From: Macrostomum lignano
Lineage: Eukaryota
Assembly: GCA_002269645.1 (NCBI GenBank)
Contig: NIVC01001184.1
Span: 1 to 64,000, forward strand
Length of the DNA: 64,000 nucleotides
Reading direction: 5' to 3'
Part shown: positions 7,801 to 58,648 of the stretch, in pieces
How positions within the stretch are numbered: the stretch's first letter is position 1
Layout of the letters: each line of letters starts with the position of its first letter
The notes under the pieces: model-generated
Databases searched by the model: none
Seen by the model: the letters and a program-made list of their open reading frames with translations, nothing else
Told to the model about the DNA's origin: nothing
Translations under genes and position numbers: made by a program

Positions 7801-10591
7801 CAACGACCGAAAACTTGCCGAGCTGCCTTGGCACCTGAGAGAGTCGCAGCAGTTTGAATCGTTGAAACAAAAGTGCCTGTGCAACTTTGATTTCATTCTG
7901 GCCAAAATGTTGGCTTCGTCGGTGCGACATGTGTTGGATTTGTACGAATCTGTGCTAAGCGCCGAGCCTCGTGACAAAGACCTACGACTGATATCCAACT
8001 CTTTGTACTTGTCTCGAGCCGAGCTGGAGCTAGACCCGAAGCAACTAGCGTCACAGCTTCTTGGACGCATCACGGATGTGCTCAAAGCTGATCGGCCAAA
8101 GGCTCCAGCAGATCCGAAGAAGTACCCATTTGTGCACGCCCTCTTTTATCGCGCTCGGCGCAACAACGTTCCCACTCTTGTCCCATCAAAGTCGTGCATG
8201 ACAACGCCTAGCGAGATTGTCCTTGATCTCCTGCAGGGACACCGACTGCCAATCACGGCTGTCTGCATCAGCGAAGATGGAACCACGGGATTCACTAGCT
8301 CGCAGGAGGACACAATTAAAGTGTGGGACTTGACGAATAGTAGAGTCGTAAGCACTATTGAAGGCTCTGGCAGTCAGGTACTGTCCATGACGCTTGGCCG
8401 TCAGGAATCGGTGTTGATCACATCGGAGTTAACATGCGTAAAGGTGTACGCAGTGAAGATAGGCTGTCTGCTTTTCACCATTCCAGTTCAGGATGATCCT
8501 TGCTCTGTTGTCGTCAATGGAGACACAAACAACTTGGTTTGCTTTCACCAGGGTATCTGCGTGATGCGCACCTGGAATTTGGAGCGCTTAACTAAGGTCT
8601 GCGACAAGACGTTAACAGAGACAGGACTGCACCAGGATCGCACCGTGGTTGTCTCTACCCGATGCAACGCAGATTTAGTTCTGTACGGCCTTAGAGGTTC
8701 CAATTTCGCTCGTGTTGTCCACTGCCGCAGCGGACAGGACGTATTAAAGCTGTCCTGTCTTGACAAAGCGTCCCTAGTGACGGCTGTGCAGACTAGTCGC
8801 GAGTATTACATTGTAGCTTGCCAGGCTACCGACTTGCACACTCGCGTGCACATGTTCTTCTTGGAGCTATTTGACACCGGAAAAGGCAAAAGCGTCCGAC
8901 GCATCAAGGGTTGTTCATCTGACAGTGTAGTCGATGAGCTAATGCTAACTAACATTCAACAGCACGTGATCTCCTTGAATCCTATGCGAGACAAGAATAT
9001 GACTGATATTGTGGCATGGAACCTGGAGACCGAGGAGCACAAACACTTTACTCGTCACCCAGGAATTTCGTCAATTGGTGCTGTTTACGATTTTCGTTGT
9101 GTGATCACGGGCTCGCTGGCCGAGAACGCCCTTCGCATGTGGAACGTGCAGCAGAACATGCAATCCGCGCCGCAAAAGACCGAAAGCCTCGTAAATCTGG
9201 CTGATATAGTTATCGACGCAGGTAACAACCGGTACGCACTGACAAAACTTTCCGACAATAGCGTAATTCACGCTTGGAGTCTCAGCGCGAATAAATTCTC
9301 CGGAAAAGTTGTTAAATCTGCCAAAAGCATCGCTGGGCCCAATGACATGGTGCTGATGGACAGGCACTTTGTCATTGTTCTAGCAAGACCAGGTTTCTCG
9401 CCTAAGGTGCCGAACGCAAAGTTCGTGTACCAGACACTAACTATCTTCGATATTCAAAAGCAAAAATTCACTGTCAATTTAAACAACGTACTAATTGTAC
9501 CGTGCGCCTACGAGGAATATCACGTGATTCATGGCAACCAGCTGTTGTGCATAAATGAGTTTCATACCAACTTTTTGGTGTACAGCCTAGAGTCTGGTGA
9601 AATTATTCGCCGAATTAAGCCAGAATTCTCGTTTGACCCTAACAAGAAGCGGCCGTCCGCCCTGCTCGAGGGTAGCGTGCTGCAGCGCGAAAACGAAATG
9701 TTTGAAGAGTTCATCAACAGTCGAAAGCAGACGGTTTTCATGACACCCTGGGAACGCAGAAACGAGAGCAAATCGGCAAAAACTCGACGCTATCGAAGCG
9801 AGTGGGAGGAGAAAAAGCAACGAGCTGACGAGCTTGAGCAGGAGAAAGGAAACGGCATCGCGGACTTCCTAATTAGCAAGGACCAGTCCACCGTTGTGTC
9901 CAGCTTTTTTGCTCACCACATCTGCGTATTCAACTTGTCGAATGGGACCCAGCAAAGCGTGCTGGAGCATCCCAACGCCCTGCTGCACCTGTTTACAGCG
10001 TCGCTTAGTCCCAACGGGCGCTACCTCGCTCATACTATCTACAACGAGCAGCAGGAAATGAGCCAGCTGTGCCTCTGGGACTGTCGCACCGGAAAAGTGA
10101 AGAAGTCATTCAACGAGGGCGGCGTCGGGGCCGTAGCTGTCAACAGCGACGCTAGCATTCTCGTCTACGGGACCGACAGAGGCGAGCTGCAGGTACGCGA
10201 CTGCCGACGCAGCCCAGCCAAAGTCCGCGTGGCCAAGACCAGCGCCTGTGTGAACTTCCAGCAGAGCAGTCACCGAAACTTCATCCAGTTGTTCCGCGAC
10301 GATAAATGGGCTTTGATCTACGCCAGGAGCCTGTCAGTGTGGAACATGCAGAGCCTGGAAATGTTGAGCATCCTGACACCCGATCAGCCGCTGCACTCGA
10401 TTCGGCTGGCACTGAACGACCAGCTGATTGTGTTCAGCTCCAAGGACTCAAACGATCCGATCATTCTGAAGATGCTGTCGGCCAATTCAAAGCGACCACA
10501 ACGAGTCGGCGCGCGCAAGTTCGGCGAGGCGGACTCGACAGATTCGAGCGAGGACGAAGACATGCCGGTAGAAAGAAGCGCCGACGATTGA
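1864..10591 (+). CDS. NACHT- and WD40-repeat protein (NWD1/NWD2-type STAND NTPase with N-terminal DUF4062-like domain), multi-exon
   Basis: Inferred exons: 1864-1884, 2222-2338, 2614-3441, 3835-4683, 4812-5041, 5447-5729, 6854-10591, all GT-AG. Phases are compatible once three -1 homopolymer slips in exon 4 (~3836, ~4020, ~4261) are allowed. Motifs: DUF4062-like LYVTSSLGDFDAERAAM..VPHLR..FGLDFRLID; LLGDKFG; Walker A HGPSGSGKT; Walker B VILLDSLGQL; YLTAAKNGLTEAELLDILS; RKLAELPWHL; WD40 GHRLPITAV..DTIKVWD. The two first small exons are less certain. Confidence 0.88.
5817..6071. repeat. Intronic 20-bp tandem repeat (GTTACCTCCAGGTGAYGTGG) x~12
   Basis: Near-perfect copies inside the NWD intron 5730-6853. 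Confidence 0.95.
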
Positions 10592-35963: not shown

Positions 35964-38900
35964 GGCGACGAAACGGCCACCCCCCACGGAGGGGTCTGCT
36001 TTCTTGTTAAGGAAGGTGTGGATTTCGCTGAGTACCGTCTGCCGCATATAGACGTGACCCGCACTGCTGCTGAAGGCTCGGCCATCTCGCTCCACGATAA
36101 ACGATTACCTCGACCAATTCACATCATCAACCTCTACCTCCCGCCGGTTCGAACCGCCGACGGGCGCCCTGACGGCTTTGACCCGGACTGGCTCCCGACC
36201 GGCCCGGACGTGTTCATCCTCGGAGACATAAACGCACACCACGGCATGTGGGAGGATAACTGCGACTCCGAAGACCAGCGAGGCTCCGCTTTCGAAGACT
36301 GGGCCACCACCAATGATTACGTGGCCCTCAACGACGGCGGCCCGACCAGAGTCAACGCCAGAGGCTCTACCAGCAGCCCCGACGTCTCCTTCGTCCCTGC
36401 CAGCTGGCAGGACAAGCTAGATTGGAACACCGGCAAACATATCGGATCTGACCACCTGCCCATCATTATTGACGTCATAAACCTAAACCCGCTCCCTGTG
36501 AAAAACGACAGGAAAAAGAGGCACACTCGCTTGGCTTATCACAAAGCAGACTGGGACAAATTCCGCCTTATCATCAGCGAGCGCCTTAAAAACTGGACCG
36601 CTAGACCACCAAAGACTGCCACTGGAGCTGCCAGCAAGCTCACCGACGCGATCACGGAGGCGGCCCGCAAAGCGATACCGCAGGGATCCCGCCGCGCCCC
36701 AATTGCTTGGTGGTGCCCAGAAGCTGAAGCAGCGTGCGCAGCCGACGCCAGGCTCTTGAAGACCTCCGAGCCAACCCCAACGACGACCAACTCGCCCAGG
36801 CGTTCCAGGAGGCGGCAGCGCACGCCACCGCCACCATCCGCAACGCCAAGGAAGCCCTGTGGCGCGACTTCATCAGCGACAACTCCAGCGAGCTCAAGTC
36901 GACTGACCTGTGGCGCATCATCCGCGTCCTCGACGGCCGCACCGCGGCCGCCCGCCCATCAGGGGCGATCCAAAACCCACAAGGCCGCTTCGCCACCTCC
37001 AACCGCCAGAAAGCCGATCTTTTCTGTCAAGAGTACGCCAACGTCGCCAAAATCCCGAAAGACAAATCGGCCGACAAAGACATCCGAAACGAATCCAGAA
37101 GAGCTGTGCGGGACATTTGCAGCTGTCAAAACCACCGGACGGGCCTGTGCGCCGACTTCCCGATGGAAGCTCTGACCAGAGCCATCAGAGGTATCCCCAG
37201 CAGATCGGCACCGGGCATCGACGGCGTTTCGAACCTAATGCTCAAAAATCTGCCAACCCAAGGCCTGGAGCTGATGCTGCTTGCCATCAACATCTCCTGG
37301 CGTACCGCTGAAGTCCCGGCTGCGTGGCGTCTGGGCGACATTCGACCGATCCCCAAACCCGGAAAAGATCACAGCATCACGGCGAGTTTCCGCCCTATCT
37401 GCCTTCTCTCTTGTACTGCTAAAATCGCCGAGCGGCTCGTTAACGAACGCCTCGCCTTTCATCTGGAAGAGAATAAACTGCTAAATGCAGCCCAAGCTGG
37501 ATTCCGCCGGAACCGCTCCACTGAGGAGCAGATTACGGCGGTCACCCAATACATCTTCGACGGCTTCCAAGCTCAGAAACCAGCGAAGCGGACCGCCCTA
37601 CTCTTAGCTGACTTCTCCAGAGCGTACGAGCGCGTGTGGCGTAAAGCCCAAATCGCCAAGCTAAACAGAAAAGGGACGCCCACGTGTATGAACCGGTGGA
37701 TTAAAAACTTCATCAACGACCGCCGTGCCCTCGTCACCTGGGACGGGGTCCGCAGCCGCGTCCGAATCTTCACCGAGGGCCTACCGCAAGGATCCGTTCT
37801 CGCCCCGACGCTCTGGGACGTGTACATCGACGACCTGCTCGACGACGCCCCCGAAGACGTCCTGGCGGTCGGTTACGCCGACGACACCACCTTCGGCGCC
37901 CAAGGCCACAACCTCAAAGAGTGCGAGTCGAGACTGCAGAGAGCGGCCGATTGGCTTGTTACCTGGTCCCAAACCTGGAAGGTGGACCTCAACAAGTCCA
38001 AGTCGGTCGTTTCCTTCTTCTCCCTCGATCCCCGTGAGGTAAATGGCAAAGCGAGACCGAATATCAGGCTCGGCGACGTCCAGGCCCCGTTCGAACCTCA
38101 CCCAAGACTCCTGGGCGTGCACCTCGACTCCCAGCTCACGTTCCGGCACCATGCGTCGGTACAAAAACAAAACCTCCAAAAGAGGACCAACGCTCTCCGC
38201 TGCCTAGCCGGGCGTGACTGGGGCCAGGACCCTGGGCTCCTGTCGCAACTCTACAGAACCTACGCTGAGTCGGCTGCTCTTCACGGCGCGGCAGCCTGGT
38301 TAAACTTCGCGTCGGACGCCTGCAGACAACTGGTGGAATCTGCCCACAACGAGGCTGCCCGTGTCATCTCAGGATGCTGCAAATCTACGCCAACAGCCGC
38401 GCTCCTTATCGAAGCCGGACTCCAACCCCTGGCTCACAGTGCGGCGGCCGCGGCAGCGACGCTCCTGGACAAAACGCTCCGCCAACGCCAAGCCACCCCG
38501 CTCCGCAACATCGCCGACAGAGAAGTCACTCCTCGCATCCGCGCTCACGGCGGAAACGGCAACTTCCGCAGATGTTGGCGCAGGTGTGCCAGAGAGCTGA
38601 CCCACAGAGCCGGACTGGCTGAGCTCCAAATCGAAACCGACAACGAGCTGGTGCCTCCGTGGTCATCCTCGACCAGCTTTCACATCCAAGACGCCCTCAT
38701 AGTTAAGTGCTCACGCGACGACCCACCGCATGTTCGCAGGGCCGCGGCGCTGGAGACCCTAGCGTCGCTCCCCCCGCTGACCTGGAACTCTGGACGGACG
38801 GGTCGGCAGCAGGGGGTACCACCAACGGCGGAGCAGGAGCTGTCCTCTACACCCGCGGTTCGTCGACGCGCTTTCTGAGAGCTCCGGCGGGGAGCCTGAC

Positions 38901-44582: not shown

Positions 44583-45622
44583 TAGACAACGCTGTAGGGG
44601 ATTTGCCCATAGAGAAATTCGATAAGGTAAAATCCGCTCTAAACAAATCCGATCTTCTAAGCAAATCGAGTGTAAGGATTCTTTTACTTTAGTTGTTCAT
44701 GAGCAAGAAGTTCTTGAACTACTTCACCAATGATTAACGAGAGCGTGTATGACCGGTTTTTATAAAGACCTGCTTCAATAGTGCAGCCCGAAAGTCAGTC
44801 GGTATACACGAGTCTGCTCAGCCGGCAAGCACACGCACGCACTCAACACACACTGCATGTAGCGGTGGCCTCGTCAGTTTTCCTGTCTGCGAGCTCGAGC
44901 AAACTTCCTGCTTTCTCGAGCCAGTGTATAAACTCTACACAGACGCGCCAATACTTGAAAAATTATGTTTCTCAACTCTGCTCGCCGGGGAACAGAAGTT
45001 AACTTCAAAGAGATGCTGGTTGATTCCATGCTGGTGGTTAGCTTTATACGGAGTTTCTCGACAAACTGTAGCATTTTGCAAGCTACACAATTTTACCCTT
45101 GATTTTGAACAAGGAGAACTTCGAAACTGACAAACTCCTCTTTAATATTGACACTCTATGGTCGGGCACTCAAAATCTACAATCAATATTGACAGATCGA
45201 GCTTCATTTTTGACAACTCCGAATCAATATTGAACAGTTTACAATCGATTTTGACTAAGACATTTTTTGAAATGGATTTTGAAAATTTTTACCAAGTTTT
45301 CTCTCTTGAGGGGGGTACTTGCTATTTGGGAGAGGGGGTACTGGCTGCATGTATCTACGAGTACATGTGGGAATCTTTCTATCCAGGGAAAAATGAAAAA
45401 TGAAGCAGACTTTTTGGGTACACAAACCATAGAGTGTCAGTTTTGAAGCAACTCTGTCAAAATAGAATCGGACTTTGCAGCCCAACCAGTCAGGCTATTT
45501 TAGTCTGTGTGTCTAAAGGATGGAGAAAAATAAATTTTATCAATACTTGTAGATCCAAAAAGCAAAGTCAGAATAAGCTGATTTTGCACAGCTCACTTCA
45601 GCCCCGTTCAGGCTTTCATTGG

Positions 45623-45801
45623 AGTAGTAGGAAAGTGGTACCCTCTACCGCCATCGCACGGGATTGGCCGGGGCACCCGGCCAATGAGGGGAGAGGGCGC
45701 CCCGAAGACGCCCACCCCGACGCCAAACCCACCCCGACCCCCAAACCCACCCCGACCCCAAACCCACCACCGCCACGCACCCAATCCCGACCCCAAACCC
45801 A
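45623..45801 (+). repeat. Maverick left TIR, followed by subterminal 39-bp repeats to ~46110
   Basis: Reverse complement of the right end; C-rich sub-repeats CCCCGACCCCAAACCCA. Confidence 0.95.
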
Positions 45802-46673
45802 CGCACCCAATCCCGACCCCAAACCAGGCCCCCTCCTGTCCTACACCCCTCCTGTCCTGCACCCCGTGAATCCCATACCAAGACCCCCTCCTGTCCTGCA
45901 CCCCGTGCATCCCATACCAAGACCCCCTCCTGTCCTGCACCCCGTGCATCCCATACCAAGACCCCCTCCTGTCCTGCACCCCATGCATCCCATACCAAGA
46001 CCCCCTCCTGTCCTACACCCCTCCTGTCCTGCACCCCGTGCATCCCATACCAAGACCCCCTCCTGTCCTGCACCCCATGCATCCCATACCAAGGCCCCCT
46101 CCTATCCTACGCCTTGCCCCATTCCATGTAGCAAGGTCTTTCTATCCTGTACCCTAACCAAAACCAATTCCCCCCTCCTAATTCCTAAACCCAAGTCTTA
46201 TTACCTGTCTCACTTACCGCCTTTAAAGCTAGCCAAGGCAAAACCCTCATTCCATGCTTTGGTTGTACTGTATCTTGCTGTGGCGGGTACAGCGTGAGGT
46301 CGTTAGACCTAGAACGCTACTTCTTGGCGGCCAGAGGGCCGCAAGAAGGTCCCGCCACCTCCTGTTACGTTGATGGCTGAGACTTTGTTAAGGCCCGAGT
46401 TCCTGCGAAAGGGCTGCTGTGTGGGGGTTGGATTTGGGGTTCGGATTAGTTATTGCTATGGAACAGGAGCTGGTTTCTAAATGGCTGAGTGGTCCCCGGA
46501 AGGGCTCCTGATTTGCCGAGAGTTCCTGCGAGAGGGCTGTTGTGTGGGGTTGGATTCGGGGTTCGGATTGGTTATTGCTATGGAGCGGGAGCTGGTGTTA
46601 CTTACCAACTCCAGTCATATATAATCTCGCGCACAGCCGGAAGGAAAGCTCACAGTTTTTGACAGTGAACAAA

Positions 46674-47369
46674 ATGGAGTTCAAGACATTATCGAACAGA
46701 TTTCGAATCGGCGTCAGGTCGCACTCGAAGTGCATCAGCTTCAGAAAGTGGTACAAATTTGCCGAAGAGTATCGACCAGGTCTGCCTGGCATGGAGCTCA
46801 CCGTCCACCAGTTTTGCCACTTGGGCAGCCTGAAGGAACGACTGAAAGAGTTTGCAAGAAAGTGTATCGACGAGCAATGCCTTCTGGGCGGCAACAGGCA
46901 AGTGGTTTTGCAAAATGGCGTAATCACACTCTGGCGCCTTCCAACTGTACTCGGACCGCCGGTGCACCTAAGGCATGCCTTACCGCTTCCTACTACACTT
47001 TGGCGCGAAGTCTGGGCTCAAAAGCAATGGGTCCTAGACAAAATTGACAAGCGAGAGCCTCCGGTCGAGCCGCCGATCGGCGATCCATGGTGGATGGGAT
47101 ACCACCCTACGGAATCTGAAGAGTGTTCAGCATGGGCAGCAAGGCTTACACTCGACCAACTGATGCAAGTACCTGACAGGCAGTCGGCAGATTGGGACGA
47201 CCACTGGGGGGCCTTCCAAGCAGTTCAGGCTGAATTTAGAAAGAGATTTACATTCGAAACTCTGGAAGAGCCACCAACAGCTGAGAAGAACCAACAGCCT
47301 TCATTCCACCAGCCACCAATGAAGCGACGCGCAATGCATGAAGCGACAACTGGTCATTTCGTCAATTAA
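46674..47369 (+). CDS. Maverick accessory protein with N-terminal PC4/Sub1-like (ssDNA-binding coactivator) domain
   Basis: ATG in AAAATGG context, TATATAA at 46618-46624, AATAAA at 47603. ISFRKWY..EEYRPGLPGMELTVHQFCHL aligns by eye to the PC4 core IDIREYW..EMKPGRKGISLNPEQWSQL. The C-terminal ~160 aa are unassigned. Confidence 0.6.
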   Translation: MEFKTLSNRFRIGVRSHSKCISFRKWYKFAEEYRPGLPGMELTVHQFCHLGSLKERLKEFARKCIDEQCLLGGNRQVVLQNGVITLWRLPTVLGPPVHLRHALPLPTTLWREVWAQKQWVLDKIDKREPPVEPPIGDPWWMGYHPTESEECSAWAARLTLDQLMQVPDRQSADWDDHWGAFQAVQAEFRKRFTFETLEEPPTAEKNQQPSFHQPPMKRRAMHEATTGHFVN

Positions 47370-47788
47370 CTTTTTTTTAATATAGTTTTGAACCATAGTA
47401 CTGATCATGCACTGTTGTATATATTGCTTTGTCAATACTGGCCATAATATTGCCCCATCATGCTTTGATTCCTGGCGATAATACTGTTTTGTAAATACAC
47501 GCGACGGGCCTTAATACTGCCCTTCCATTCTTCATAAACTTTTTTTGTGCTAATACGAGCTTTTAACATGTAATTTTATGCTTTGCAATCCATGGACCTG
47601 CCAATAAAATAAACAAAAAAAACGTTTCATTTTCGTAAGCATTGTTGCACAAACACAGTCGCATTCGCGTTTATTTTTTCTTATATTTTGTACACAAAAA
47701 ATACAGAAGTAAAGTTACAGCAAAAATATTATTATTAATACTCGGTGCATAGGCAGATCTCACTACTACTGTTATGCCGTAGAGGAGC

Positions 47789-48388
47789 TCAGTCAGAGTC
47801 CAGCAAAGTAGGTTCGGATGCTTGATCTGGTAGCAAAATGCGGGAGAGGGCATCAGCTGCAGTCTGAGCCTCAACCACGCTGCGAGCACCAGCTATTATA
47901 CAGCGATATGAATGAAACAAAATCAACTTTACAGAGGCAGTAAACTCGAGCACAAGTCCGTTAAACATTTCCGGCTCATAGGTGCCCCGATGCGGCCATT
48001 TAGACTTGAGTTCCCCCAACCGGAGTGGATGCGGACCCGCGGGAAAGGCCGTCACAGAGGTAATAGTCTTGATGCGAATCTGGGGCAGACTGGTCAATCG
48101 CAAGAAGTCCGCACACAGCTTCACAATCTTCTCCGTCTCTGCGAGAGCTTCCTCCAGGCTTTTGGCTCCACAGACAGACACTTGTCCGGTCGGATACACC
48201 AGCGCGGTTACTCGATGCTGCCCGCTCTTCATCACCACTGCCAGTGTTCGAGGATGAACCAGGCGATGGCGGATTGTGTGATACTGAGGCAGATGAAGAG
48301 TCAGGAAATTCGCTAGTTGTGGCAGACCCACCCGGGTCGCCAGGTCGGCTCCTGTCACGATGTTTGTCACGCGAATTGTTGCGACCAT
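47789..48388 (-). CDS. Maverick-encoded divergent TATA-box-binding protein (TBP)-like protein, 199 aa
   Basis: Two-repeat TBP core. Repeat 1: VTNIVTGADL..LANF..TALVYPTGQVSVCGAKSLEEA. Repeat 2: YEPEMFNGLV..LILFHSYRCIIAGARSVVEA. Upstream TATAAAA at 48435-48441; minus-strand AATAAA at 47670-47675. Confidence 0.85.
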   Translation of the reverse strand: MVATIRVTNIVTGADLATRVGLPQLANFLTLHLPQYHTIRHRLVHPRTLAVVMKSGQHRVTALVYPTGQVSVCGAKSLEEALAETEKIVKLCADFLRLTSLPQIRIKTITSVTAFPAGPHPLRLGELKSKWPHRGTYEPEMFNGLVLEFTASVKLILFHSYRCIIAGARSVVEAQTAADALSRILLPDQASEPTLLDSD

Positions 48389-48390
48389 CT

Positions 48391-48880
48391 TTAGACAATC
48401 GAGAGAAACGCCAGTGCCTGCTGCAGATCGCTACTTTTATAGACCCGTAGCCGCGAGGCCGCAGCCAATCAGCGTACAGCGCCACTTTGGCCAGGGCGCA
48501 GGGCAGCACGTACTTTGAGGCACTCGGAAAGGCTAGGTGTGCGAGGTCGTAAACAGGCTGCAGCAGCAGACGCGACAGGAACTGGCACTTGACATCCCCC
48601 TTGCTAAATATCGGGCCTTGCAAGTGAGAGATATCGCTCCAGAGACAAGAGTAGGGTCGGAACCCACTCCTGTCCCAGTCTAGACGTGCCGCTTATTGGT
48701 GAGCCAGTAGCAGGTTCGTCGCTGTCCTCTATCAAAGAGCTCAAAGCTGTGCGGCGGCTGGTAGCAATAGTAATGAGCCGTCGTTTGACCGCATGCAAAC
48801 TCAACCCATGCAATTTCCTTAATCACAAAGTCCTCTGTTTTGTAGAGGTGCGGAAATCCTTCAAAATCAATGACAATCAT
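48391..48880 (-). CDS. DEDD/DnaQ-like (Maelstrom-like) 3'-5' exonuclease-fold protein, frameshifted in this sequence
   Basis: MIVIDFEGF..FVIKEIAW..YQPPHSF..WLTNKRH, a -1 slip at ~48685, then GLDWD..PY..IFSKGDVKCQFL..VYDL..CALAK. The 3' end is inferred: a second slip near 48445 gives a stop at 48391; otherwise the ORF runs to 48000. Confidence 0.6.
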
Positions 48881-49473
48881 CTTGGCCACTTGATCCACTT
48901 GCCGTATCCTTTCTGAGACTGAGTCTTCTTATAGCCTTGCAGTCGAGGTTTTTTAGGACTGGACTTTTCTTCCCGAGGCTTTTCCAGCAATTTTGTAGTG
49001 TTCAGACCAACTGCAGACAGAGGCACGTGGTTTTCTTGAAGACACGTAACAAACTCATTAATCCCATTCGGTGGCTGAAGGTACTTAGAGTACGTATCTT
49101 TAACTATGAAATGCAGCAGGTCCACGATATTTGAGTTGTACAACGGTTTACCATTGACAGAAACTTCATACGTATCATCTATGCTAATCGACTTGCACTT
49201 TACGGTTATGAAGCTAATCAATGCCTGCAGACGATGATGCCATTTCTGATTCACCGTCAGATATAAAACCTCCTTCCACTGCGGTTCTTTGTGAATTACT
49301 GGAGGCTGTTCTTGGGTCGCACTTGCCTGCAGCTGCTGCACGCAACGCTCGTCCCTAATCTTGCGCAACTGTTTTTCCGCCTCTAGCTCGGGTTCACAGA
49401 CTGTCTCCATGCCCCTCTGATTCACAAGTGCCTCATACTGCAACCGGGGTACCAGTATCATTTCCTTGTACAT
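48877..49473 (-). CDS. Conserved Maverick protein of unknown function (PZ/PW class; exact label uncertain)
   Basis: MILVP start and VNGKPLYNSNIVDLL..PPNGINEF..LQENHVP motif resemble the conserved Maverick ORF found next to the ATPase. Confidence 0.55.
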   Translation of the reverse strand: MYKEMILVPRLQYEALVNQRGMETVCEPELEAEKQLRKIRDERCVQQLQASATQEQPPVIHKEPQWKEVLYLTVNQKWHHRLQALISFITVKCKSISIDDTYEVSVNGKPLYNSNIVDLLHFIVKDTYSKYLQPPNGINEFVTCLQENHVPLSAVGLNTTKLLEKPREEKSSPKKPRLQGYKKTQSQKGYGKWIKWPR

Positions 49474-49765
49474 GTCTTTTTATATAGGTGAGAATCAGAG
49501 GAAGACAACGAAGGATATGCGGGTGTGAGAGATTACGCCGAGCCTCTTTCACACTTTTGCTTTGTGCAACAAGCCGGAGAGTATTTCGATATCGCCTGAG
49601 TCTCCGCTTCAAGCTATCTTCACAGCCAACTTTTCCTGCTAGTAAGTTGATAATACACTCGACCAAAAAGCAAATGGTGCTTTTATTTGCATAGGTAAGT
49701 ATGCAGCGACGCAAGGATATAGTGCCCTCACAAAAGACAGTTATTAGTGCAATGTGTTTATCCAT
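49433..49765 (-). CDS. Conserved small basic Maverick protein (PM/PW class; exact label uncertain)
   Basis: RRCILTYANKSTICFLVECIINLLAGKV..KRRLRRYRNTLR resembles the Maverick small ORF pattern IL..A..L.EC..N.L.G.V..LR. Confidence 0.55.
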   Translation of the reverse strand: MDKHIALITVFCEGTISLRRCILTYANKSTICFLVECIINLLAGKVGCEDSLKRRLRRYRNTLRLVAQSKSVKEARRNLSHPHILRCLPLILTYIKRHVQGNDTGTPVAV

Positions 49766-49795
49766 GTTTAACTCAGTGCAGAGACTGAGCCATTC

Positions 49796-50454
49796 TTATA
49801 GATAAACTCGCTGCGGGGCCTCATCGGGGAGAAAATTGGCTCTCAGGCGCAGTTCATGGCGTGAAGCAGGGTGAAAATCAAGCAGCAGATAGCGCTGATC
49901 TCCATCTCGCACCAATCGATCCATCAGTTCTACTAGCAGAGTGCGCCGTTTGGGAAAGCATTGCTGACTTAAAGCTTGGACCGCAGAGGCGTCTCTGGGG
50001 TTGTTGAACAACACCATGTAGGTGCAATTTATGCTAATTGTGCGCCACTCTCTGCCTTTGAAAAATAGATTTTGCGTGATGAGAATGACAAAGCAGGGCT
50101 TGTGGTGGGCCTCACGGGTGAACAGATGTCGTAGCTCTCGACTTGCAGCTGCTTCATCCAGTAAATCGTCAATCACAATCAGGTCATGGGGCTGCAGATC
50201 CAAATTCGATAATCCTTCACATACTTGCACTCCTAGCCGCCGCAGAGTCGCGTGGAGTTCCGGCTGCGGGCATCCGTGATACCAAATCATCCGCTTGGGA
50301 GGTTGGTCGAACAAAGCAGTCGTTGGGACAGCAACCGCAAACAGAATGTTGATTTTCCCGCTCGAGAAGGGCCCGAAACCATCATGCAGCCTCCCATCCG
50401 CAGTCTGGAATCAAACACCTTGCAACTGATTTTTGAGTCTGAGTATGATTGCAT
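49796..50454 (-). CDS. A32/FtsK-HerA-like DNA packaging ATPase (one -1 slip at ~50314)
   Basis: Walker A GPSRAGKS, Walker B LIVIDD, HHKPCFVILITQNLF, RTISINCTYMVLFNNPRD; ~219 aa when rejoined. Confidence 0.92.
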
Positions 50455-50884
50455 CGTTTTGAGCCACAGCTGCCGGGTGCAAAACCTTGATGAACAAGGC
50501 ATTATATGACATTCTCTTATGCAGTCGATGGATCAAGTAAAAAATGCAATACCAGCCGCAAAGAGTTGACGAACTGGGCTGAACAGGGACCGTATTCCAT
50601 TGTAGCACCATCCGCGTCGGTTTAGTTTTCTTTAACCAGCTCTTCATATTTTTACTCAAGCCTCCCAAAGAGTTGAAAATTTCACAATGCACTTTACTGG
50701 TTACTACTCCAGCAATCCAGTGACCGCACTCATCATTCCATGGCTCATACAAAATGAAGCAGCAGGGTCGGCAGGTTGAATCGAAAAATGGTGTCACTGT
50801 TCCAACTGTAAAATTTCCGCAATAGGCATCCCGCACAGATGTGGGGCAGCGAGAAATGAACGCTTCCAACTCTTCGGAATTCAT
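50411..50884 (-). CDS. Adenain-like cysteine maturation protease
   Basis: GHW (catalytic His), FNSLG, VQPSSSTLCGWYC (oxyanion Gln and catalytic Cys). Confidence 0.9.
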   Translation of the reverse strand: MNSEELEAFISRCPTSVRDAYCGNFTVGTVTPFFDSTCRPCCFILYEPWNDECGHWIAGVVTSKVHCEIFNSLGGLSKNMKSWLKKTKPTRMVLQWNTVPVQPSSSTLCGWYCIFYLIHRLHKRMSYNALFIKVLHPAAVAQNDAIILRLKNQLQGV

Positions 50885-52150
50885 GCTCTGCGATAATCCA
50901 GCAGCACATCCCTCTCTTTAGTGATTTCCATGCATGAATCATACACGCACAAGCAGATGAGTGTGACTGGCTGTGCGAGAGCGTTGGAAAAGCGAATATC
51001 CAGTCGTAGTTGACCCTGCCTATGACCAAACCAGCTGCCTACTTCATCGCCACTTGGACTAAGGTCAAACGCAAGCAGATAGGCACTATTTCGAAATTCA
51101 TCAAAGCTTATGCAATATTTTCCACTGAGACTGCGGGCAAACTGCAAAAATTCGGATGAGGCTGCTGCTGTGGTTCTATGGGCTGCCCAGTAATTGGCTC
51201 TCCATTGACAAACAGGCTTAAACTATTCAACCAAATGCTTGGAACCAAAACGGGTTGTGGTGCAGAGATCCATTGAAAGCAGTCTGGCTGACCATTCCAA
51301 GGAGCACAAATTTTGGCAGCTGACCATGCGTGATTGAATCGAGACTCTTGTTTCTTGTCCCAACAGAAAATGTGAATGTCTGAAGCTCTCTTCTATCAAA
51401 GTGGTAGAGAGCATTACGCTGTGAGAGCCCCTGTTCATGTGCGAGAGCCACTGTTGGGTTTACTCGGAGACGCCTCAAAAGCAGAATAGCATTGTCGACT
51501 TCAACACGGTATTGAACTCCATTATTGGGTACCATCAACGAAAAAGCGCTGCAGTGCCGGGTCAATTTGACCTGCAGGCTGATTTGGTTTAGCAGATACT
51601 GCCGGATTGAGAAAATGTCTGAAAACAACGGGCCGGCATATTGCACAACAGCAGAAGCCTCATGCAATCTCGCACGATTTGTGAATCCATGATTTTGCTC
51701 CCCAATGGTGTCACTCTCTCCAGCGGTGTCTGGATAATAACCTGCGGCCGCCAGTTCTTGAAGCTGGTTGGCATTGCTGCTGGTCAGCACTTGAAGCATT
51801 GCTCGATATGGGTAGAGCTGGTCCCCACCACTCACAACCCGCTGGTTGAGTTTTACAGTGACATCACGAAACAGGCTGGCAAGCGGGAGATTCGATAGTC
51901 CGACATGGGCATCATCTTCATTAGTCAGCTCTGCATTGTTTATCACACGAGTTATCCGGCAAGTGACTTGCAGCACTGTGGCGTGCAGATCGGTGTAGTC
52001 CTCAGAGGAGGCGTGGCAGTCGAATTCAATCGGTGCATCAGGAGTCGTGAGACTGCCGATGGGATGAAAGTCCGTGAAGTGAGACCTATCCACTCCAATT
52101 TCATGCGTCATTGGCTCAAACAGATTGAGCCGTGGATTTGTCCGATACAT
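50881..52150 (-). CDS. Major capsid protein (double jelly-roll, PY), two -1 slips at ~51229 and ~51174
   Basis: LNLFEP..FHPIGSL..PIEF..YTDLHATVLQVTCRI; LFRDVTVKLNQ; YPYRAML; AFNGSLHHNPFWF; C-terminal AFDLSP..GQLRLDIRFSNAL..EITKERDVLLD; ~423 aa when rejoined. Confidence 0.9.
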
Positions 52151-52419
52151 TATGAGAGTGAATCGAGCACTCGGTTGACTGTTTTTAACGGTATCTTGCG
52201 CTTTTTTGTGGGCACTGGCTTGCTCTTCTTTGGTTTGATTTTTGGCGTCTTCTTATGTTTTCTTTTTTTCTGCGATGGAGGTGGTATGCGGGAAAGGAGA
52301 ACTGCATTTTCATGAGTCTCAGGGGGCAGTCGAGATAGCAGCGATGTGGGATATCCGTGCCCATGAGGAAGTTTGAAGCAACTGCCTCGATAAAACTCGG
52401 TCACTTGTCGAATGTCCAT
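52150..52419 (-). CDS. Small Lys-rich putative core/DNA-condensing protein
   Basis: 89 aa with a highly basic C-terminus (QKKRKHKKTPKIKPKKSKPVPTKKRK) and an N-terminal FYRG..HGHG motif; lies between the capsid genes, overlapping both. Confidence 0.5.
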   Translation of the reverse strand: MDIRQVTEFYRGSCFKLPHGHGYPTSLLSRLPPETHENAVLLSRIPPPSQKKRKHKKTPKIKPKKSKPVPTKKRKIPLKTVNRVLDSLS

Positions 52420-53183
52420 GACTCACGCAGCTCAAAAGTCAAGACTGTGGGTACAAAGAGTAATCGGATAGATTCGATACAGTTGATCGGTCGTAGCCGT
52501 ATTTGCATGTGTGTTAAGCGGTGGTTTGCTGCTATTGGGAAGAATAGCTTATTCTTATAGATGAGTTCCGACCGGTGATCCTGCAAAAGACCACCAATAT
52601 TCAAAGTCTGCAGTGCTGGAGTAAACTGATTTCCAATACAGCGCGGGCTAATCTGATCGCACTCAACAAGCAGCAAATCCGTATTCCAGGCCGGGTTCAT
52701 GCCAGGTCGTTCAAAGCATCCTGCCTGCTCGCTATAGGTTGTCTGCGCAGCACCAAAGATTTTCCCCATCTGGCTGTTTTCTGGAAACATAAATCTCTCA
52801 CAGATCCCAGCCATTTGATAGTATACATAATGGCTAACTGAATCAAGGGTAAATTTAATTAGATGCACATTTATAGGTGTTTCGCCAATTCCAGACTCAT
52901 CAAAATCTTTTACAATCAGTAAAGCATTTACTGCATCAATCAGCTCATTCAAGTCATTGTAGCGCCCAGCTGGAATTTCAGCACATTGCATTGAACCCTC
53001 AAGCTGATAATATAGCGACAATGGATGAGGGATCGTGTAGATGCAGTTGATAAAACTGATTCCAAGCAGACCCAACTCATAGTCCAAAGCAGAATCCAGC
53101 AGCACAGGATGCAGCAGCTCAGCAGTAAAGTTGGCCGGGTCATCATCGGGGCCGGACATTACCTGAAATCTTTGCCTTTTCAT
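52401..53183 (-). CDS. Minor capsid protein (penton, single jelly-roll with insertion, PX)
   Basis: PANFTAELLHPVLLD..YELGLLGISFINCIYTI N-terminus and LLLVECDQI..FFPI..HMQIRL..LTFEL C-terminus; position typical of the Maverick penton. Confidence 0.8.
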   Translation of the reverse strand: MKRQRFQVMSGPDDDPANFTAELLHPVLLDSALDYELGLLGISFINCIYTIPHPLSLYYQLEGSMQCAEIPAGRYNDLNELIDAVNALLIVKDFDESGIGETPINVHLIKFTLDSVSHYVYYQMAGICERFMFPENSQMGKIFGAAQTTYSEQAGCFERPGMNPAWNTDLLLVECDQISPRCIGNQFTPALQTLNIGGLLQDHRSELIYKNKLFFPIAANHRLTHMQIRLRPINCIESIRLLFVPTVLTFELRESWTFDK

Positions 53184-54387
53184 ATTTTTCTTAAGTCTTT
53201 TTCGTCAATCCAACTGGGTTTTTCTGAATCGCGCCACTGAACCAAATACCGAATCTTTCCACTCTTCAGCTTCTTAATGTTGAGAACCTTGTCGATGATC
53301 CACAGCTTCTTGTTTCCTGTCACTTGCTGCATTTCCGGCTCGTAAAACTTGCCTTCCAACTCTTCACCTCGGGCATCGATCAGAGTGTACATGTATGGAT
53401 AATGCTTGGGGTGGAGGGACTTGACTTCAAATACTTCCTCACTCCATCCCCTTGTGTATCCCTTGGTGAATGGGTTGGCCAGATTGCGAAGAGAGATTCG
53501 CACCATCATTCCTGCCTTGAACTTTGGTCTGGAGACCTTTTCACGAGTCTCAGGAAGCTTCCCATCGTAAAGCCGGTGCCAAATTTCCATCTCGTTTGAC
53601 TTGTCGACATCAACTGGTCGGCTTTGAATACTCCGATGAATACTCTGGTTGTATGCCTTTGCTAAGGGTTGAAGCACATCGGTCCAGGTTAATGTTGACT
53701 TGTGACGGAAGTACCGCCACATTCGGGATTTCAGTGTGCGGTTCCATCTCTCAATGACTGCGCATTTCTGGTCACTACTTGATGTGAATGCATGAATTTT
53801 GTGGTTTACGCAGAGGCTCGGAACTGGGTGTTACAAAACTCTTTTCCACGGTCGGTCCGAACTGCTCGTGGGCATCGAGGGTGAGCTCGATTTAGGATCG
53901 CTTCGAATCCGGCTGCAACCTCCTCGGCTGTCTTGCGGCGCACCGGCTGAGCCCAGGCAAACTTGCTGAGCACATCAATGCAGCATAAAATATATCGTAC
54001 GCCGCCATTGTACTTGGCAAACGGTAGCATTTCAACCAGGTCCAGTTCCCACTGGTCATCCATGCCCCGCACCACAATCGGTGCTCGACGAAAGTTTTTG
54101 CGTTTATCTCTATGCAGTGTGTAGACATCTTGGTCTTGGAGCCACGTTTTTACCTTTAATTGTAAAAACTGGAAATTGCTAGCAACTAAAAACCTAAGCT
54201 GGAATTTTCTAAAAAATCATTGGTTTAGAAGTATATCGTATATACATACCTGCCCTACACTAAACTTGGGTCCGTGCTGTTTGTGCAACTCTCGTTTTAA
54301 TGCCTGATAGCCGCCATAGCTGCCCGGTCTACTGCAGTCAAAATAAATACCTGGCAGAAGGTTTGAAATTGCCTTTTTCTTTTTCAT
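53180..54387 (-). CDS. Retroviral-like c-integrase (DDE) with C-terminal chromodomain; 2 exons, one -1 slip at ~53815
   Basis: Exon 1 54387-54250 (MKKKK..IYFDCSRPGSYGG..VGQ); intron 54249-54154; exon 2 VKTWLQDQDVYTLH..QWELDLVEM..TDRGKEF..AVIERWNRTLK; chromodomain WIIDKVL..RYLVQW..PSWIDEKDL; ~370 aa when rejoined. Confidence 0.92.
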
Positions 54388-54499
54388 TTTACCAAATTTC
54401 TAGTACCTATCATTTTCTTATGCCAAACACCTGCTTGAAAAAAAAAAACTACCCACCCCCACCAGTTTCTGCGGATTTAGCGTTTCTAGCCTCTGTTGT

Positions 54500-54815
54500 G
54501 CGCGAAAAAGCATGCATGTTTGCACAAAAATACATACATTTCAATGGGAATTTTTACCCGAATGTGTGCACAAAAAACCTCGACACTTTGCATACTTTTT
54601 AACACTGTGCACGAAAACTTGCATACTTGTGCACAAAATACATGTATTTCAATAGGGATTTGTACCCGAACCTGTGCATGAAAATTGACGCATTTTGTCG
54701 AAAAATTCACGCCGTATTGCATACTTTTAATCACTGGACGAAAACTTGCATACTTGTGGATAAAATACATACATTTCAATGGGGATTTTACCCCAGAGCT
54801 GTGCACAAAAAATGA
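54500..54815. repeat. Imperfect ~110-125-bp triplicated AT-rich repeat between the pPolB remnant and the integrase
   Basis: AAAATACATRYATTTCAATRGG..TTTTACCC..TGTGCA recurs at ~54527, ~54636 and ~54762. Confidence 0.7.
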
Positions 54816-54979
54816 CTAATTATAGCAAAAATATTTTTGTGAAAGAGCATTTTTCTCTATTTCTGCGTATTAGATATCATAGAGTAAAGCTTGTATTTAT
54901 TATTATTCAAAATATAGTATGTTCGTATTAAATTTACATGCATATAGTTGTTTTAAATCAGATATTTACAAAGAAAAAA

Positions 54980-55770
54980 AAATTTGTGGGAAAAAGAGCT
55001 TGCTAGTGTCCAGACAGATCGCACTGGCCGATATACACTAGCCTGTCGAGCACAACATTCGTCTTGAGAATGTGCACTAGAGCTAAATCCCCGTTGAAAA
55101 TCATCTGATCGCGGAACGTCGGCTGGCCACAGGCTTCCCTGCTGAATAAACCAGCACGTAGTCCACTTGCTTGCGAACATACTCGATGGTCTACAGGGAG
55201 TTGTTTAGCAGCTTGTTGCAGTCTTTCTTGAACTCATTCTTGGCCTTTTGCACGACGCTCTATGCGGTAGATAATAACTTGCGGTTGACACGTCAACACA
55301 CCGAGTGGTCCTGATTACCCAGCCACTGCCATTGCGTAGTTACTTCTCTATCCGGTTGAGGATAGTCTGCATGTCGTCAGAGAAGTAGTACTCCTCCTCA
55401 CTCTGGAGAAGAGAGTGGACCTTGGCAGCAAACCAGGCAGTGTTCTCGGCGGCGCAGCTACCATTAATGATGCGCTGCATCAGGACCCCGAGGCGCAGCT
55501 GAACTTTGATGGCGGTTCCTGGCTCACGTTGATGCTGGGTGATCAAGTCAATGAAAGCTTGACGAGTGTTTTCCAAAACATTCATCGGGTCGCCGCATGC
55601 ACTGGCCCGGTAAAGTTGGGACCTGCCATTAAACGCCTCCTTGATCAGTTGAAAATGAATCGCTGGGGAGTCATCTGACTCAAAAGTGCTGGTATCGCAG
55701 GACATACCGCATAGTGCTCCTCAATGCCCCCGATTACTGATGACTCGCAAAAGTCGCAAGTTATTTGCAT
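54980..55770 (-). pseudogene. Protein-primed family B DNA polymerase (pPolB) remnant with a large internal deletion
   Basis: N-terminal CDFC..H..C finger and KVQLRLGVLM..WFAAK..IEK-stop-LRNGSGWVI (the Maverick pPolB GSGW motif). This is joined within ~60 bp to AKNEFKKDCNKLLNNSL-stop-TIEYVRKQV (motif B, KLxNNS) and PTFRDQMIF..VLDRLVYIG..LDTSKL. In-frame stops and frameshifts; no exonuclease or YxDTD core. Confidence 0.85.
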
Positions 55771-56448
55771 TTTCGTTGTATTTTTAATTTAATCTAAAAT
55801 AAATAAAAAATCTATGGGGCCGAGGTGCTTTATTTATAAAGGGTACTGGAGCCCTTCTCCCGCAGGGTCCAAACCAAATCGTTCATCAGGGACCTCTCGA
55901 CCAATAGAATCCATTCTCCACATTTTACTCGGAAATCACTTCAAATGCTTGCTCGACCAATAGAATCCCTTCCCCTCTCTACTCGGAAATTCCAAGCAAT
56001 CAGACCCTCTACCCGTTAAGATCACATTGAAACTCTGTCTTGCGTATCACCACATGCGGTAGAGGATACTCAACTATGGACACTCATTCACATCTCAAAA
56101 CTCACCCTTGAACACTCACTTAACTCACCCTTGGACACTCACCCAGACACTCAGCTGCCCAACCCCTCATCTGGCCTGCTCGACCGGCTTGCCCGACCGG
56201 CTTGCCCGACCGGCTTGCCCGACCCCAACCTGGGCTTGCCCGACCCCCTTCTCCGGCCTCCGGTATGGGATGGTGTGCTGGACAGGAAGGGGCCTTGGTA
56301 TGGGATGGGGTGCAGGACAGGAGGGGGCCCGGTTTGGGGTCGGAGGTAGGTGCGGCGGTGGTGGGTTTGGGGTCGGGTGGGCGTCTTTGGGGGCCCGGTT
56401 TGGGGTCGGGGTGGGTGCGTGGCGGTGGTGGGTTTGGCCGGGGTCGGG

Positions 56449-56628
56449 GTGGGTTTGGGGGTCGGGATTGGGTGCGTGGCGGTGGTGGGTTTGGGTCGGG
56501 GTGGGTTTGGGGGTCGGGGTGGGTTTGGCGTCGGGGTGGGCGTCTTCGGGGCGCCCTCTCCCCTCATTGGCCGGGTGCCCCGGCCAATCCCGTGCGATGG
56601 CGGTAGAGGGTACCACTTTCCTACTACT
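56449..56628 (-). repeat. Maverick right TIR, with related sub-repeats continuing to ~56250
   Basis: Reverse complement of the left end. Confidence 0.95.
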
Positions 56629-56835
56629 CATTGGATTACTTTGTTACCGAATTCTCCCAGGAGAAGTTGACTAAACGTGCATTGTCAAAATTGAACCAGA
56701 GTTTGTCAAAATTGAAGCTTGATCTGTCAATATTGATTGTAGATTTTGAGTGCCCGACCATGGAGTGTCAATATTGAAGAGGAGTTTGTCAGTTTCGAAG
56801 TTCTCCTTGTTCAAAATCGAGAGTAAAATGGTGTA

Positions 56836-58648
56836 GTAGAGACTACGAGCAAGCAATTTAATTCAAGTTAGCAAAAACACATGCATTTTGAGCCTCACTG
56901 CTAGTTGTCTCACGATTTCGCGCGGGCAAGACGGCCTAAGGAATCGTCAGTGTGTTGCCCGCAGATTTTGTCTATGGCATAAGCGTAAACGTTTGTAACG
57001 CAAGATTTTTTTGTATTTTTTGCGATTAAACTTGAAAAGTACAAAGTGAAACTTATGAACATGGCATTAAAAGTACAACCGATATGTCACGTATACATAG
57101 CGTGTGCAATGGCTGCATGTGACCAGAGGAGTTCCTTTAATACTCCACGTTAGTCTATAGTCCACTAAATGAAGAAACTAAGTCAGACGCCATCCTTTTC
57201 CAGTACAGCGGTAGGCTTGAGGTCGTTTGGGTCGCATGATTGCCTCACGGCTGGGATAGCGTTCGGTCTTTGATTGATGTTGCTAGCCTCTGAAGTCTCA
57301 GTGACGACCATACGCTTTGATGAGGTGGCCTCAGTCTCCGACACAGTCTGTCCCCACGGCAGGATTTCCTTTCAAACTTACATACCAGAGGCGCAAATAG
57401 CTGTCGACATAACGCAGTGGCATGCGCTCAATGTCCTCAGGCAGTTTCTTCTCGCGGAGGAACTTCTTAAGTCGTTCAATGTGGTTCCGAGTAGTAGCCA
57501 ATGTCGAAGGCGACTTTGAGGATGCCTCGGTGTCCTTAATGTTTTGAAGTTCTTTCGCATCCAAGTCTCGTAGCGAACACTCCGGATCAATAGCGGAATT
57601 CAGGAATTCTTCGACCTCCTCGTGGTCCAGGACCGGCAGCCCAGTGAATTGATCTACCGTTGATTCTACATGCATGAACAGTCGAGATATAAAATGCAGC
57701 TCAGAATTAGCCAGGCCACTAATATCGCCTGTTGCTATCTTACTGAAATTGATCATGTTGCCGTCAGAATAAGCTATCAGTGCAGCTAATCTCAGCTCTA
57801 GTCCGATGCCTCCACGTCTCTCTTCACTGCAGCTGTATGAACAGGCTTTAGGGGCTTTGGACATAGACGAATTCTCAGGGCAACGGACACACAACGACAT
57901 TCCGTGCCCGCTGTTTTGGTCTATGGCCAATCGTGAAACAACATAGCAGCCCTCGGATTCGCTCATTCCTGCCCTCAAATCCATAGTCAGAACAATCAGT
58001 TGTCTATGGTAAAAAGTGTGTCAAACCGGCAGGCAATTTAATCCTAGGAGCACTTATTTAAGCACGATCTTGCTCGGACTTTCCATTTATTTCATGCATG
58101 CCTCCAACCAAACCAACCAGGAAGCTCCATATGAAAAAGTTACGACGTATAGAACAAAATTCAGCAAAAAAGTTCACTTAACGAAACCTGTGTATAAAGA
58201 AACACACGGCAGAAAAGTTTTTACATGTACGTTTAGACTTCAGTAGGTTACATAATCACCTCCCCAGCGCTGCAGCCTGTGCGAATTCTTGTCTGCGTGC
58301 TAAGTTGGCAATGCTTCTGTTGTTAGCGTCGATTATCAATCTATGCTTTTTGTCGTTAATCTTAGCATATTGCACAGATGGCGCTCCGGCATCTTCAGCA
58401 GCGATTCCGTGGATGTCTTAAAAATGGTGCTGGCTTTGGTCACTTTCGTCTGACATGTTAAAAAAACTGAGATTGGAACGGCATAGACAGCGCTGTTTAT
58501 GGATTTCAGTGCTTAAATGATTGCTCCAAGGATTAAATTGCCTGCCGGTTTGACACAATATTTACCATGGCATGGACAACTAGCATTGAGGCTCAAAATG
58601 CATGTTTTTTGGCTATCTTTGATTAAATTGCTTGCTCGTAGTCTCTAC
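56836..58648. mobile_element. Degenerate inverted-repeat-bounded element (~1.8 kb) with a nested inner IR pair
   Basis: ~74-bp arms at 56836-56909 and 58575-58648 (GTAGAGACTACGAGCAAGCAATTTAAT..GCATTTTGAGCCTCA..CTAGTTGTC); second IR pair at 58004-58065 and 58509-58570. Confidence 0.65.
57331..57984 (-). pseudogene. Possible Crypton-type tyrosine recombinase (DUF3504-associated) N-terminal remnant
   Basis: ELQNIKD..KSPSTLATTRNHIERLKKFLREK..DIERMPLRYVDSYLRLWYVSLK resembles the Crypton/ZMYM/KCTD1 core-binding region. The catalytic domain is absent, and TAT|GTAAGT may be a splice donor. Confidence 0.4.

Follow-up and report, generated by a model that had tools for sequence, protein, structure and literature searches.

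The window analyzed here, a 64,000-nt stretch of the Macrostomum lignano genome (assembly GCA_002269645.1, contig NIVC01001184.1, positions 1 to 64,000, forward strand), contains a Maverick/Polinton copy at 45623..56628 that begins with AGTAGTAG, ends with CTACTACT, and is flanked by a 6-bp target-site duplication (CATTGG at 45617-45622 and 56629-56634). Its assignment to the Mavericks is supported by terminal inverted repeats with AG...CT ends together with this duplication, by the presence of both pPolB and a retroviral-type integrase, and by genes for capsid, penton, protease, and packaging ATPase (Table 1). The minus strand encodes, in order, a shortened pPolB, integrase, penton, core, capsid, protease, ATPase, a 110-aa protein, a 198-aa protein, a broken conserved gene, and a protein resembling the TATA-binding protein (TBP); a PC4-like gene on the plus strand faces these genes. 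The copy is decayed, with several genes frameshifted or stopped, and its TBP-like gene is intact. A DNA search of the host genome (G000) with a 7.9-kb query returned 29 matches, 12 of them nearly full length at 95-100%. Here we describe an upstream box that precedes most of the nine genes between pPolB and the TBP-like gene (the block genes) and differs among Maverick lineages of one host, and we weigh whether the TBP of the element reads it.

The initial annotation of this DNA had singled out the 9-mer CTATAAGAA, and we recovered exactly three copies in the window, all on the minus strand (48926-48934, 49793-49801, and 52552-52560) and at the distances it gave from the ATGs at 48880, 49765, and 52419. 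Its estimate that ∼0.1 copies would occur by chance fared worse. Three copies were reached in 7 of 100 whole-window shuffles, and the named 9-mer, expected 0.016 times in the 6.8-kb block, was picked post hoc. Some 9-mer reached three copies in 387 of 500 Markov resamples of the block, and three other 9-mers also occur three times in the real block; given these resamples and the post hoc choice, we reject the chance figure. The triple alone is weak evidence, and it is the comparison across lineages that restores the box. Widened to YWTAAGAA, the box precedes 6 of the 9 block genes of the window Maverick (lineage A) by no more than 170 nt, on the coding strand only, and takes in copies missed earlier (CATAAGAA twice and CTTAAGAA once, plus the near match CATAAGAG). 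Two copies of the 9-mer do extend to CTCAGTCTC, as had been noted in support of an initiator, but the TCAGT of this extension lies 13-14 nt from the box, not ∼30. At one site, 6 of the 18 covering copies have a changed extension, and at the other so do the two older relatives, with the box kept in each case; lineage B lacks the extension. This spacing and the non-conserved TCAGT do not fit a core promoter made up of TATA and initiator elements, and we reject the extension.

We compared lineages A, B, group 2 (four subgroups), and group F from one genome, along with an outside contig, L127; these amount to about five lineages, and their representatives are not all independent. Lineage B has the same gene order as the window Maverick, with ∼45% identity in the capsid and 36-38% in the TBP-like protein, and group 2 capsids are 33-36% identical to that of the window. 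YWTAAGAA precedes 7, 6, and 7 of the 9 block genes in three lineage-B representatives, at genes matching those of lineage A, which upholds the motif beyond the window copy. In the penton alignment, the column of TATAAGAA at 52552..52559 carries TTTAAGAA in lineage B. De novo k-mer tests over the interval from -120 to -25, with a family-wise correction for the best k-mer, returned a top k-mer containing TAAG in all eight representatives of A, B, and group 2, with P values of 64-90/3000 for the window, 0-2/3000 for lineage B, and 29-144/3000 for group 2 at the better k. The top k-mers were TATAAATA in group F and TATAAAC in L127 (0-2/2000).

Based on these tests, the boxes within a single genome are YWTAAGAA (A and B), TATAAG(C/T)A (group 2), and TATAAATA (group F), and that of the outside contig is TATAAAC. 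Each box is nearly exclusive to its own lineage, and only 3 of 33 cells for foreign boxes were non-zero, with one gene each; the match of a lineage to its own box is partly by construction, and the empty off-diagonal is not. Counts of the own box on the coding and opposite strands were 6:0, 8:0, 7:0, 8:1, 4:0, 6:0, 5:0, 5:0, 8:0, 8:0, and 9:0. The distance from box to ATG was 30-65 nt for 43 of 67 boxes and less than 30 nt for 2 of 67, suggesting an element in the TATA position with transcription starting ∼25-30 nt downstream. Four public runs presumed to be RNA covered contigs thinly and unevenly and yielded no start sites; they are not counted as evidence here. We conclude that YWTAAGAA is a real, position-conserved upstream box on the coding strand.

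The outside Maverick loci comprised four short ones from metagenomes and three from genome contigs; all five viral-contig scans and one of two genome-contig scans for such elements were empty. Short outside contigs (L119-L121 and L128) carry TATAAAC or CATAAAC 40-80 nt before core, capsid, or penton starts. L127 (JANOGQ010000345.1) is a 12.7-kb Maverick contig filed inside a bacterial metagenome-assembled genome, where it was probably mis-binned.

The terminal genes of the window Maverick (PC4-like, TBP-like, and pPolB) present a different picture, with canonical boxes on 3/3 of them. The initial annotation had reported such boxes 46-60 nt upstream of all three; the boxes were recovered, and the spacing was not for pPolB, where it is 68 nt. 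Across the lineages, TATATAA/T or TATAAAT precedes 11 of the 17 terminal-gene starts examined, plus one lineage-B pPolB start. The six starts lacking a canonical box belong to pPolB in group 2, in L127, and in one lineage-B case, and to the kinase of group 2. TATATAA/T is common to the terminal genes of four groups. In another lineage-A copy (L115, G000:C291), the pPolB start is 47% identical to that of the window and is preceded by the TATATAATCTCGCGC context of the window PC4-like gene; this copy is possibly a recombinant or a second subfamily.

The naming of the TBP-like gene was confirmed by Pfam (TBP, E=3.4e-18), and the structure model of the window protein is a full two-repeat saddle (pLDDT 93.6; TM ∼0.7 to solved TBPs). 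Every Maverick lineage read encodes a divergent TBP-like gene, with pN/pS of ∼0.2-0.35 in B and F. Relative to canonical TBP, including that of the host, F99 is lost and N159 and V161 are replaced by T/S in all lineages, which retain F190 and E188. The window protein lacks F99 and carries F116Y, V122S, N159T, V161T, and P191N, so of the canonical set of four intercalating phenylalanines and N69/N159, F99, F116, and N159 are changed. The same protein retains E186 and E188 of the acidic stirrup, a predicted contact for TFIIB. V122, which we assume from the pseudo-symmetry of the fold to face box position 6, is S/T in both groups with G at that position, I in group F (A at position 6), and H/R in the clade with TATAAAC. 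Group 2, with T at the first box position, retains P191; A and B, in which C is allowed and common at that position, have lost it.

In a quick tree, no Maverick TBP-like protein groups with the host TBP, and monophyly of the Maverick set is not settled by this tree. Besides its canonical TBP, the host genome has one or more TBP-family loci that are more distant; a query with the short type of TBP matched the host gene only. Of ten database proteins looked up for this TBP-like group, four come from M. lignano and one is a canonical plant TBP, which makes that flatworm or a near relative the probable host. The TBP-like gene of L127 is short and has ∼17 close relatives in metagenomes. The group-2 TBP-like frames start just after a pyrimidine-rich ...CAG/TAG (L101:∼130-160, L103, L104:∼680, and L105:∼1730, oriented), which looks like a splice or trans-splice acceptor. 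Groups C-E, considered as TBP-negative controls, proved to contain divergent TBP-like genes, as did group F, L127, and two more group-2 copies. The host genome also holds a further pPolB set (at least 84 matches, e.g., C67:346188, C1449:279480, and C1184:337909) that does not adjoin the listed capsid genes and may include TBP-less elements.

The second transcription factor named by the initial annotation, the PC4-like protein, matches Pfam weakly in the window (E=0.015, below the cut-off), and its lineage-B homologue, to which it is linked by tblastn (E=2e-11), passes the cut-off (E=1.7e-8). The PC4 domain is N-terminal. PC4-like genes were found only in A and B, with no PC4 match in group 2, F, or L127, and an atlas search with the protein gave no match. 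Because lineage groups without a PC4 match have TBP-like genes and boxes, we do not retain the protein as part of the transcription system. In the available text of PMC7549692, PC4 folds bind single-stranded DNA (ssDNA), and a link to replication is given for the homologue from phage T5; by analogy, the Maverick protein is most likely an ssDNA-binding protein of replication rather than a part of the switch. In group 2, the gene adjoining the TBP-like gene provides leads only to viral ssDNA-binding proteins (atlas scores of 0.85-0.90 to DUF5871, DUF2738, and Pox_I3 clusters; model pLDDT 54.8; fold matches with E of 0.03 or worse).

The system had also been described as self-contained, a description that we abandon. 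No element gave a TFIIB-family match (15 matches in the genome, 0 at located elements), and no RNA-polymerase-like open reading frame was noticed. Based on the absence of TFIIB-family matches at the located elements, host TFIIB and RNA polymerase II (Pol II) would be needed. Three group-2 Mavericks (L101, L103, and L105) carry a deoxynucleoside kinase (Pfam dNK, E=4e-21) and genes that, from their motifs, we take to be dUTPase-like and parvovirus-type phospholipase A2-like. The group F Mavericks (L136-L147) span ∼10.5 kb between terminal repeats and carry TBP-like, integrase, and capsid genes, in one case with a Fic/DOC-family gene (L140:3445-3936; E=7.8e-14); a long pPolB frame was not noticed in them, no search having been aimed at pPolB.

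TABLE 1 Genes, repeats, and upstream boxes of the Maverick copy, in window coordinates
Feature	Position	Strand	Basis or remark
Left terminal inverted repeat (core)	45623..45764		143 nt, 99% complementary to right repeat
Canonical TATATAA box	46618..46624	+	56 nt before PC4-like ATG 46674
PC4-like gene	46674..47369	+	Weak Pfam match; lineage-B homologue
TBP-like gene, 199 aa, intact, two-repeat saddle fold	47789..48388	-	Pfam TBP, structure model
Canonical TATAAAAG box	48434..48441	-	53 nt before TBP-like ATG
Conserved gene, stop near 48680 in window copy	48500..48880	-	Homology; 3' end approximate; presumably exonuclease-like by its look, no Pfam support
198-aa conserved gene	48877..49473	-	Homology; no variant box
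Variant box TATAAGAA	48926..48933	-	53 nt before ATG 48880; matching box in 4/4 lineage-B representatives
110-aa conserved gene	49433..49765	-	Homology
Variant box TATAAGAA	49793..49800	-	35 nt before ATG 49765; overlaps ATPase stop codon
Packaging ATPase, frameshifted in window copy	49796..50454	-	Homology; start uncertain
Adenain-type cysteine protease	50411..50884	-	Peptidase_C48 E=0.0085; no box within 170 nt
Near-match box CATAAGAG	50514..50521	-	67 nt before likely ATPase ATG; kept in 19/19 copies
Major capsid protein, frame broken near 51227 in window copy	50881..52150	-	Presumed from position and motifs; no Pfam match
Lys/Arg-rich core-like protein	52150..52419	-	Homology
Variant box CATAAGAA	52250..52257	-	107 nt before capsid ATG
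Penton/minor capsid protein	52401..53183	-	Presumed from position and family features; no Pfam match
Variant box TATAAGAA within penton gene	52552..52559	-	140 nt before core ATG
Retroviral-type integrase with chromodomain, frameshifted in window copy	53180..54387	-	rve E=1.7e-10
Variant box CTTAAGAA	53188..53195	-	12 nt before first penton ATG, 36 nt before second
Variant box CATAAGAA	54415..54422	-	35 nt before integrase ATG
pPolB 5' part, remainder largely missing in window copy	55340..55770	-	Longer pPolB in sister copies
Canonical TATAAATA box	55831..55838	-	68 nt before pPolB ATG 55770
Right terminal inverted repeat (core)	56487..56628		Partner of left repeat

Other features of the window include an inverted pair of 134 nt, 95% complementary, that flanks the Maverick on the outside (45083-45216 and 56703-56836) and is perhaps an older element into which the Maverick inserted. 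On the plus strand, a host open frame of 1,265 aa at 6794-10591 is presumably NACHT/WD40-like, and reverse transcriptase frames at 36246-38878 belong to what we take to be a non-long-terminal-repeat retrotransposon. Within the integrase gene, a 96-nt GT-AG intron is predicted at 54154-54249 (minus strand), and lineage B reads through without an intron. Vertebrate Mavericks are reported as intronless in the available part of PMC8097293.

With 6 of the 9 block genes carrying the variant box and 3/3 terminal genes the canonical one in the window, we think it somewhat probable, on the strength of sequence and structure models, that YWTAAGAA serves the particle genes (integrase, penton, core, capsid, ATPase, and two conserved genes) as a core-promoter element in the TATA position and is read by the element TBP with host TFIIB and Pol II. 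According to this proposal, host TBP would fire the canonical boxes adjoining the terminal repeats (pPolB, PC4-like, and TBP-like), and the element TBP would then bind the variant box in the minor groove. Its retained acidic stirrup would recruit host TFIIB, and host Pol II would start ∼25-30 nt downstream of the box. The likeliest reading is thus a late switch similar to that of herpesviruses, made of one protein and working on host machinery; its chief competitor is host TBP acting alone.

Several observations weigh against the proposal. The initial annotation had drawn a split between canonical early and variant late promoters, which fits the canonical boxes of the terminal genes and the lineage-specific boxes of the block genes but does not hold throughout B and F. 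A variant box lies 74-83 nt upstream of the TBP-like gene itself in lineage B; the protease and 198-aa genes lack one in A and mostly in B; and the group F box is a canonical TATAWAWR. The window penton box lies only 12 nt from the first ATG, gene starts were set by hand from homology and partly with boxes already seen, and 2 of the 16 k-mer tests were non-significant (1470/3000 and 1615/3000). The pN/pS of the TBP-like gene is ∼0.7 between the window and an older decayed relative, and a protein that has lost F99 might bend DNA weakly or not at all, as with TRF2 in the available text of PMC10005294. The covariation of residues and boxes rests on four to five lineages; within it, P191 is lost in F and L127 though their boxes start with T, and L127, with I114, contradicts a prediction that L114Q accompanies C at position 7 of the box. 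Finally, no TBP-less Maverick was found among the lineages read, so the link between gene and box is putative.

Some of these points would favor a host reader. Host TBP or a paralogue could read all boxes, the variants being weaker TATA boxes that tune or delay the block genes and the element protein a decoy, competitor, or cofactor. Wild-type TBP is reported to accommodate G at position 6 (PMC1636458 as far as available, and the titles of PDB 1QN5 and 1QN3), and the canonical box of group F, the missing F99, and the two or more TBP-family loci of the host are consistent with this explanation. We nevertheless consider it rather unlikely, since three uniform but different boxes in one genome are poorly explained by a single host factor. 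Moreover, CTTAAGAA departs from TATAWAWR at three positions yet dominates in lineage B, and in host-type TBP, according to the accessible part of PMC1636458, P191 is said to exclude any base but T from position 1. Another element protein could be the reader, such as the product of the exonuclease-like gene or the 198-aa protein, acting by itself or with the TBP-like protein serving as a scaffold; this would resemble the need of herpesviruses for five further activators. Both genes are kept in the same lineages and received no family assignment in Pfam scans, but a box of 7-8 nt that is AT rich and in the TATA position fits TBP, and the contact residues vary with the box, making this explanation quite unlikely.

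The box could instead be a signal at the RNA level or arise incidentally from constraints on coding and from the context of stop codons (TAA-G, Tyr-Lys, or Leu-Arg-Lys codons), given that most copies lie within the upstream gene, that one overlaps a stop codon, and that 7 YWTAAGAA sites are present in the window's 53 kb of host DNA. However, boxes were found intergenically, over stop codons, and in two reading frames, the ATPase box is shifted within the protease gene between A and B, and, in three genes, boxes retain TTA, a rare codon for Leu (9% usage), from one B subfamily to another, where synonymous codons are ∼60% identical. These observations indicate that coding constraint is not the explanation, and lineage exclusivity and the family-wise P values add to the case; we regard this origin as very unlikely. 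In baculoviruses and nudiviruses, late transcription starts inside TAAG and is carried out by a viral RNA polymerase. A late initiator of this type, used by the RNA polymerase of a helper virus with Mavericks being virophage-like, would account for the (A/T)TAAG held by all boxes of A, B, and group 2, and virophages and a Polinton-like virus share promoters with helper viruses according to the available portion of 10.1101/2022.07.28.501842. We find this very unlikely as well: the F and L127 boxes lie at similar places without TAAG, the scarcity of boxes within 30 nt of an ATG is the gap expected of a TATA-position element, the predicted spliceosomal intron points to nuclear Pol II, and no helper virus was noticed.

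If the element TBP is the reader, each Maverick lineage would have drifted to its own TBP-box pair. We suggest only tentatively that co-resident lineages evolved mutually orthogonal pairs (YWTAAGAA, TATAAG(C/T)A, TATAAATA, and TATAAAC) via a few minor-groove residues, each lineage thereby confining activation to its own virion genes, much as alternative sigma factors would if they worked in a eukaryotic nucleus. TBPs whose sequence preference has changed are rare in nature, and small TBPs each paired with its own box would constitute a natural experiment in TATA recognition. Maverick particles are rarely seen; a one-protein late switch controlling the capsid genes, if true, would explain the silence of the block.

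In the accessible literature, we found no account of a Maverick TBP with its own promoter box; gene tables, for example in supplements, may already list TBP. The available portions of Maverick and adintovirus papers (PMC8097293, PMC8502044, and bioRxiv 697771) yielded no promoter boxes or early/late cascade, and the terms TBP, PC4, and promoter were not found in those of PMC10748475, PMC11161782, and bioRxiv 2026.06.19.733378. The contribution of the window is that a single host holds three distinct boxes, together with the pattern of residues in the TBP-like proteins.

The window element shares with Mavericks/Polintons and adintoviruses its terminal repeats, 6-bp duplication, pPolB, integrase, capsids, protease, and ATPase, as far as these are described in the accessible parts of PMC8097293, PMC8502044, and bioRxiv 697771. 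Eight core genes are named for vertebrate Mavericks in the available text of the first of these, TBP not among them, and in this group of papers "TBP" labels a gene in the legends of figures on MELD viruses, which come from non-animal datasets. The PC4 domain of the phage T5 protein (PMC7549692, in part) likewise occurs in the PC4-like proteins of A and B only, where its role is predicted. In Gezel-14T and mavirus, a common upstream motif marks a temporal gene class (bioRxiv 2022.07.28.501842, available portion), as proposed for the Maverick box; there the motif is read by the helper virus, whereas the candidate reader of the Maverick box is encoded on the element itself. Structural matches to the Maverick protein in a viral library included TBP-like proteins of Nucleocytoviricota (best E=4.8e-13), at 10-17% identity. 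Most Nucleocytoviricota encode their own RNA polymerase.

Like cellular TBP (Pfam PF00352) and TRF2, the Maverick protein has a two-repeat saddle, F190, mostly F207, and the E186/E188 stirrup; it differs from cellular TBP in its altered contact residues and is 20-25% identical to it. A close parallel is the viral TBP of beta- and gammaherpesviruses, here the ORF24 system of the herpesvirus KSHV, in which, according to the available text of PMC12529657, early genes have host-type boxes, virion genes have the variant TATTWAA, and a viral TBP fold works with host Pol II. The Maverick pattern resembles this in part, with the exceptions in B and F named above, and its gene timing is proposed from box layout. 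Polar swaps at the V122, T124, V161, L114, and L205 positions are common to ORF24 (Table 1 of that paper) and the Maverick TBP-like protein, a likeness at the level of the fold. ORF24 is large, binds Pol II directly, has all four phenylalanines, lacks the TFIIB-binding glutamates, and works with five partner activators. In contrast, the Maverick protein is a bare TBP core of 150-200 aa, with E188 retained, F99 gone, and no partners known; the 199-aa window protein consists of the core only, without a herpesvirus-type Pol II-binding N-terminal domain (activator homologues were not searched for). If our proposal is true, the herpesvirus strategy arose again in a 15-kb element.

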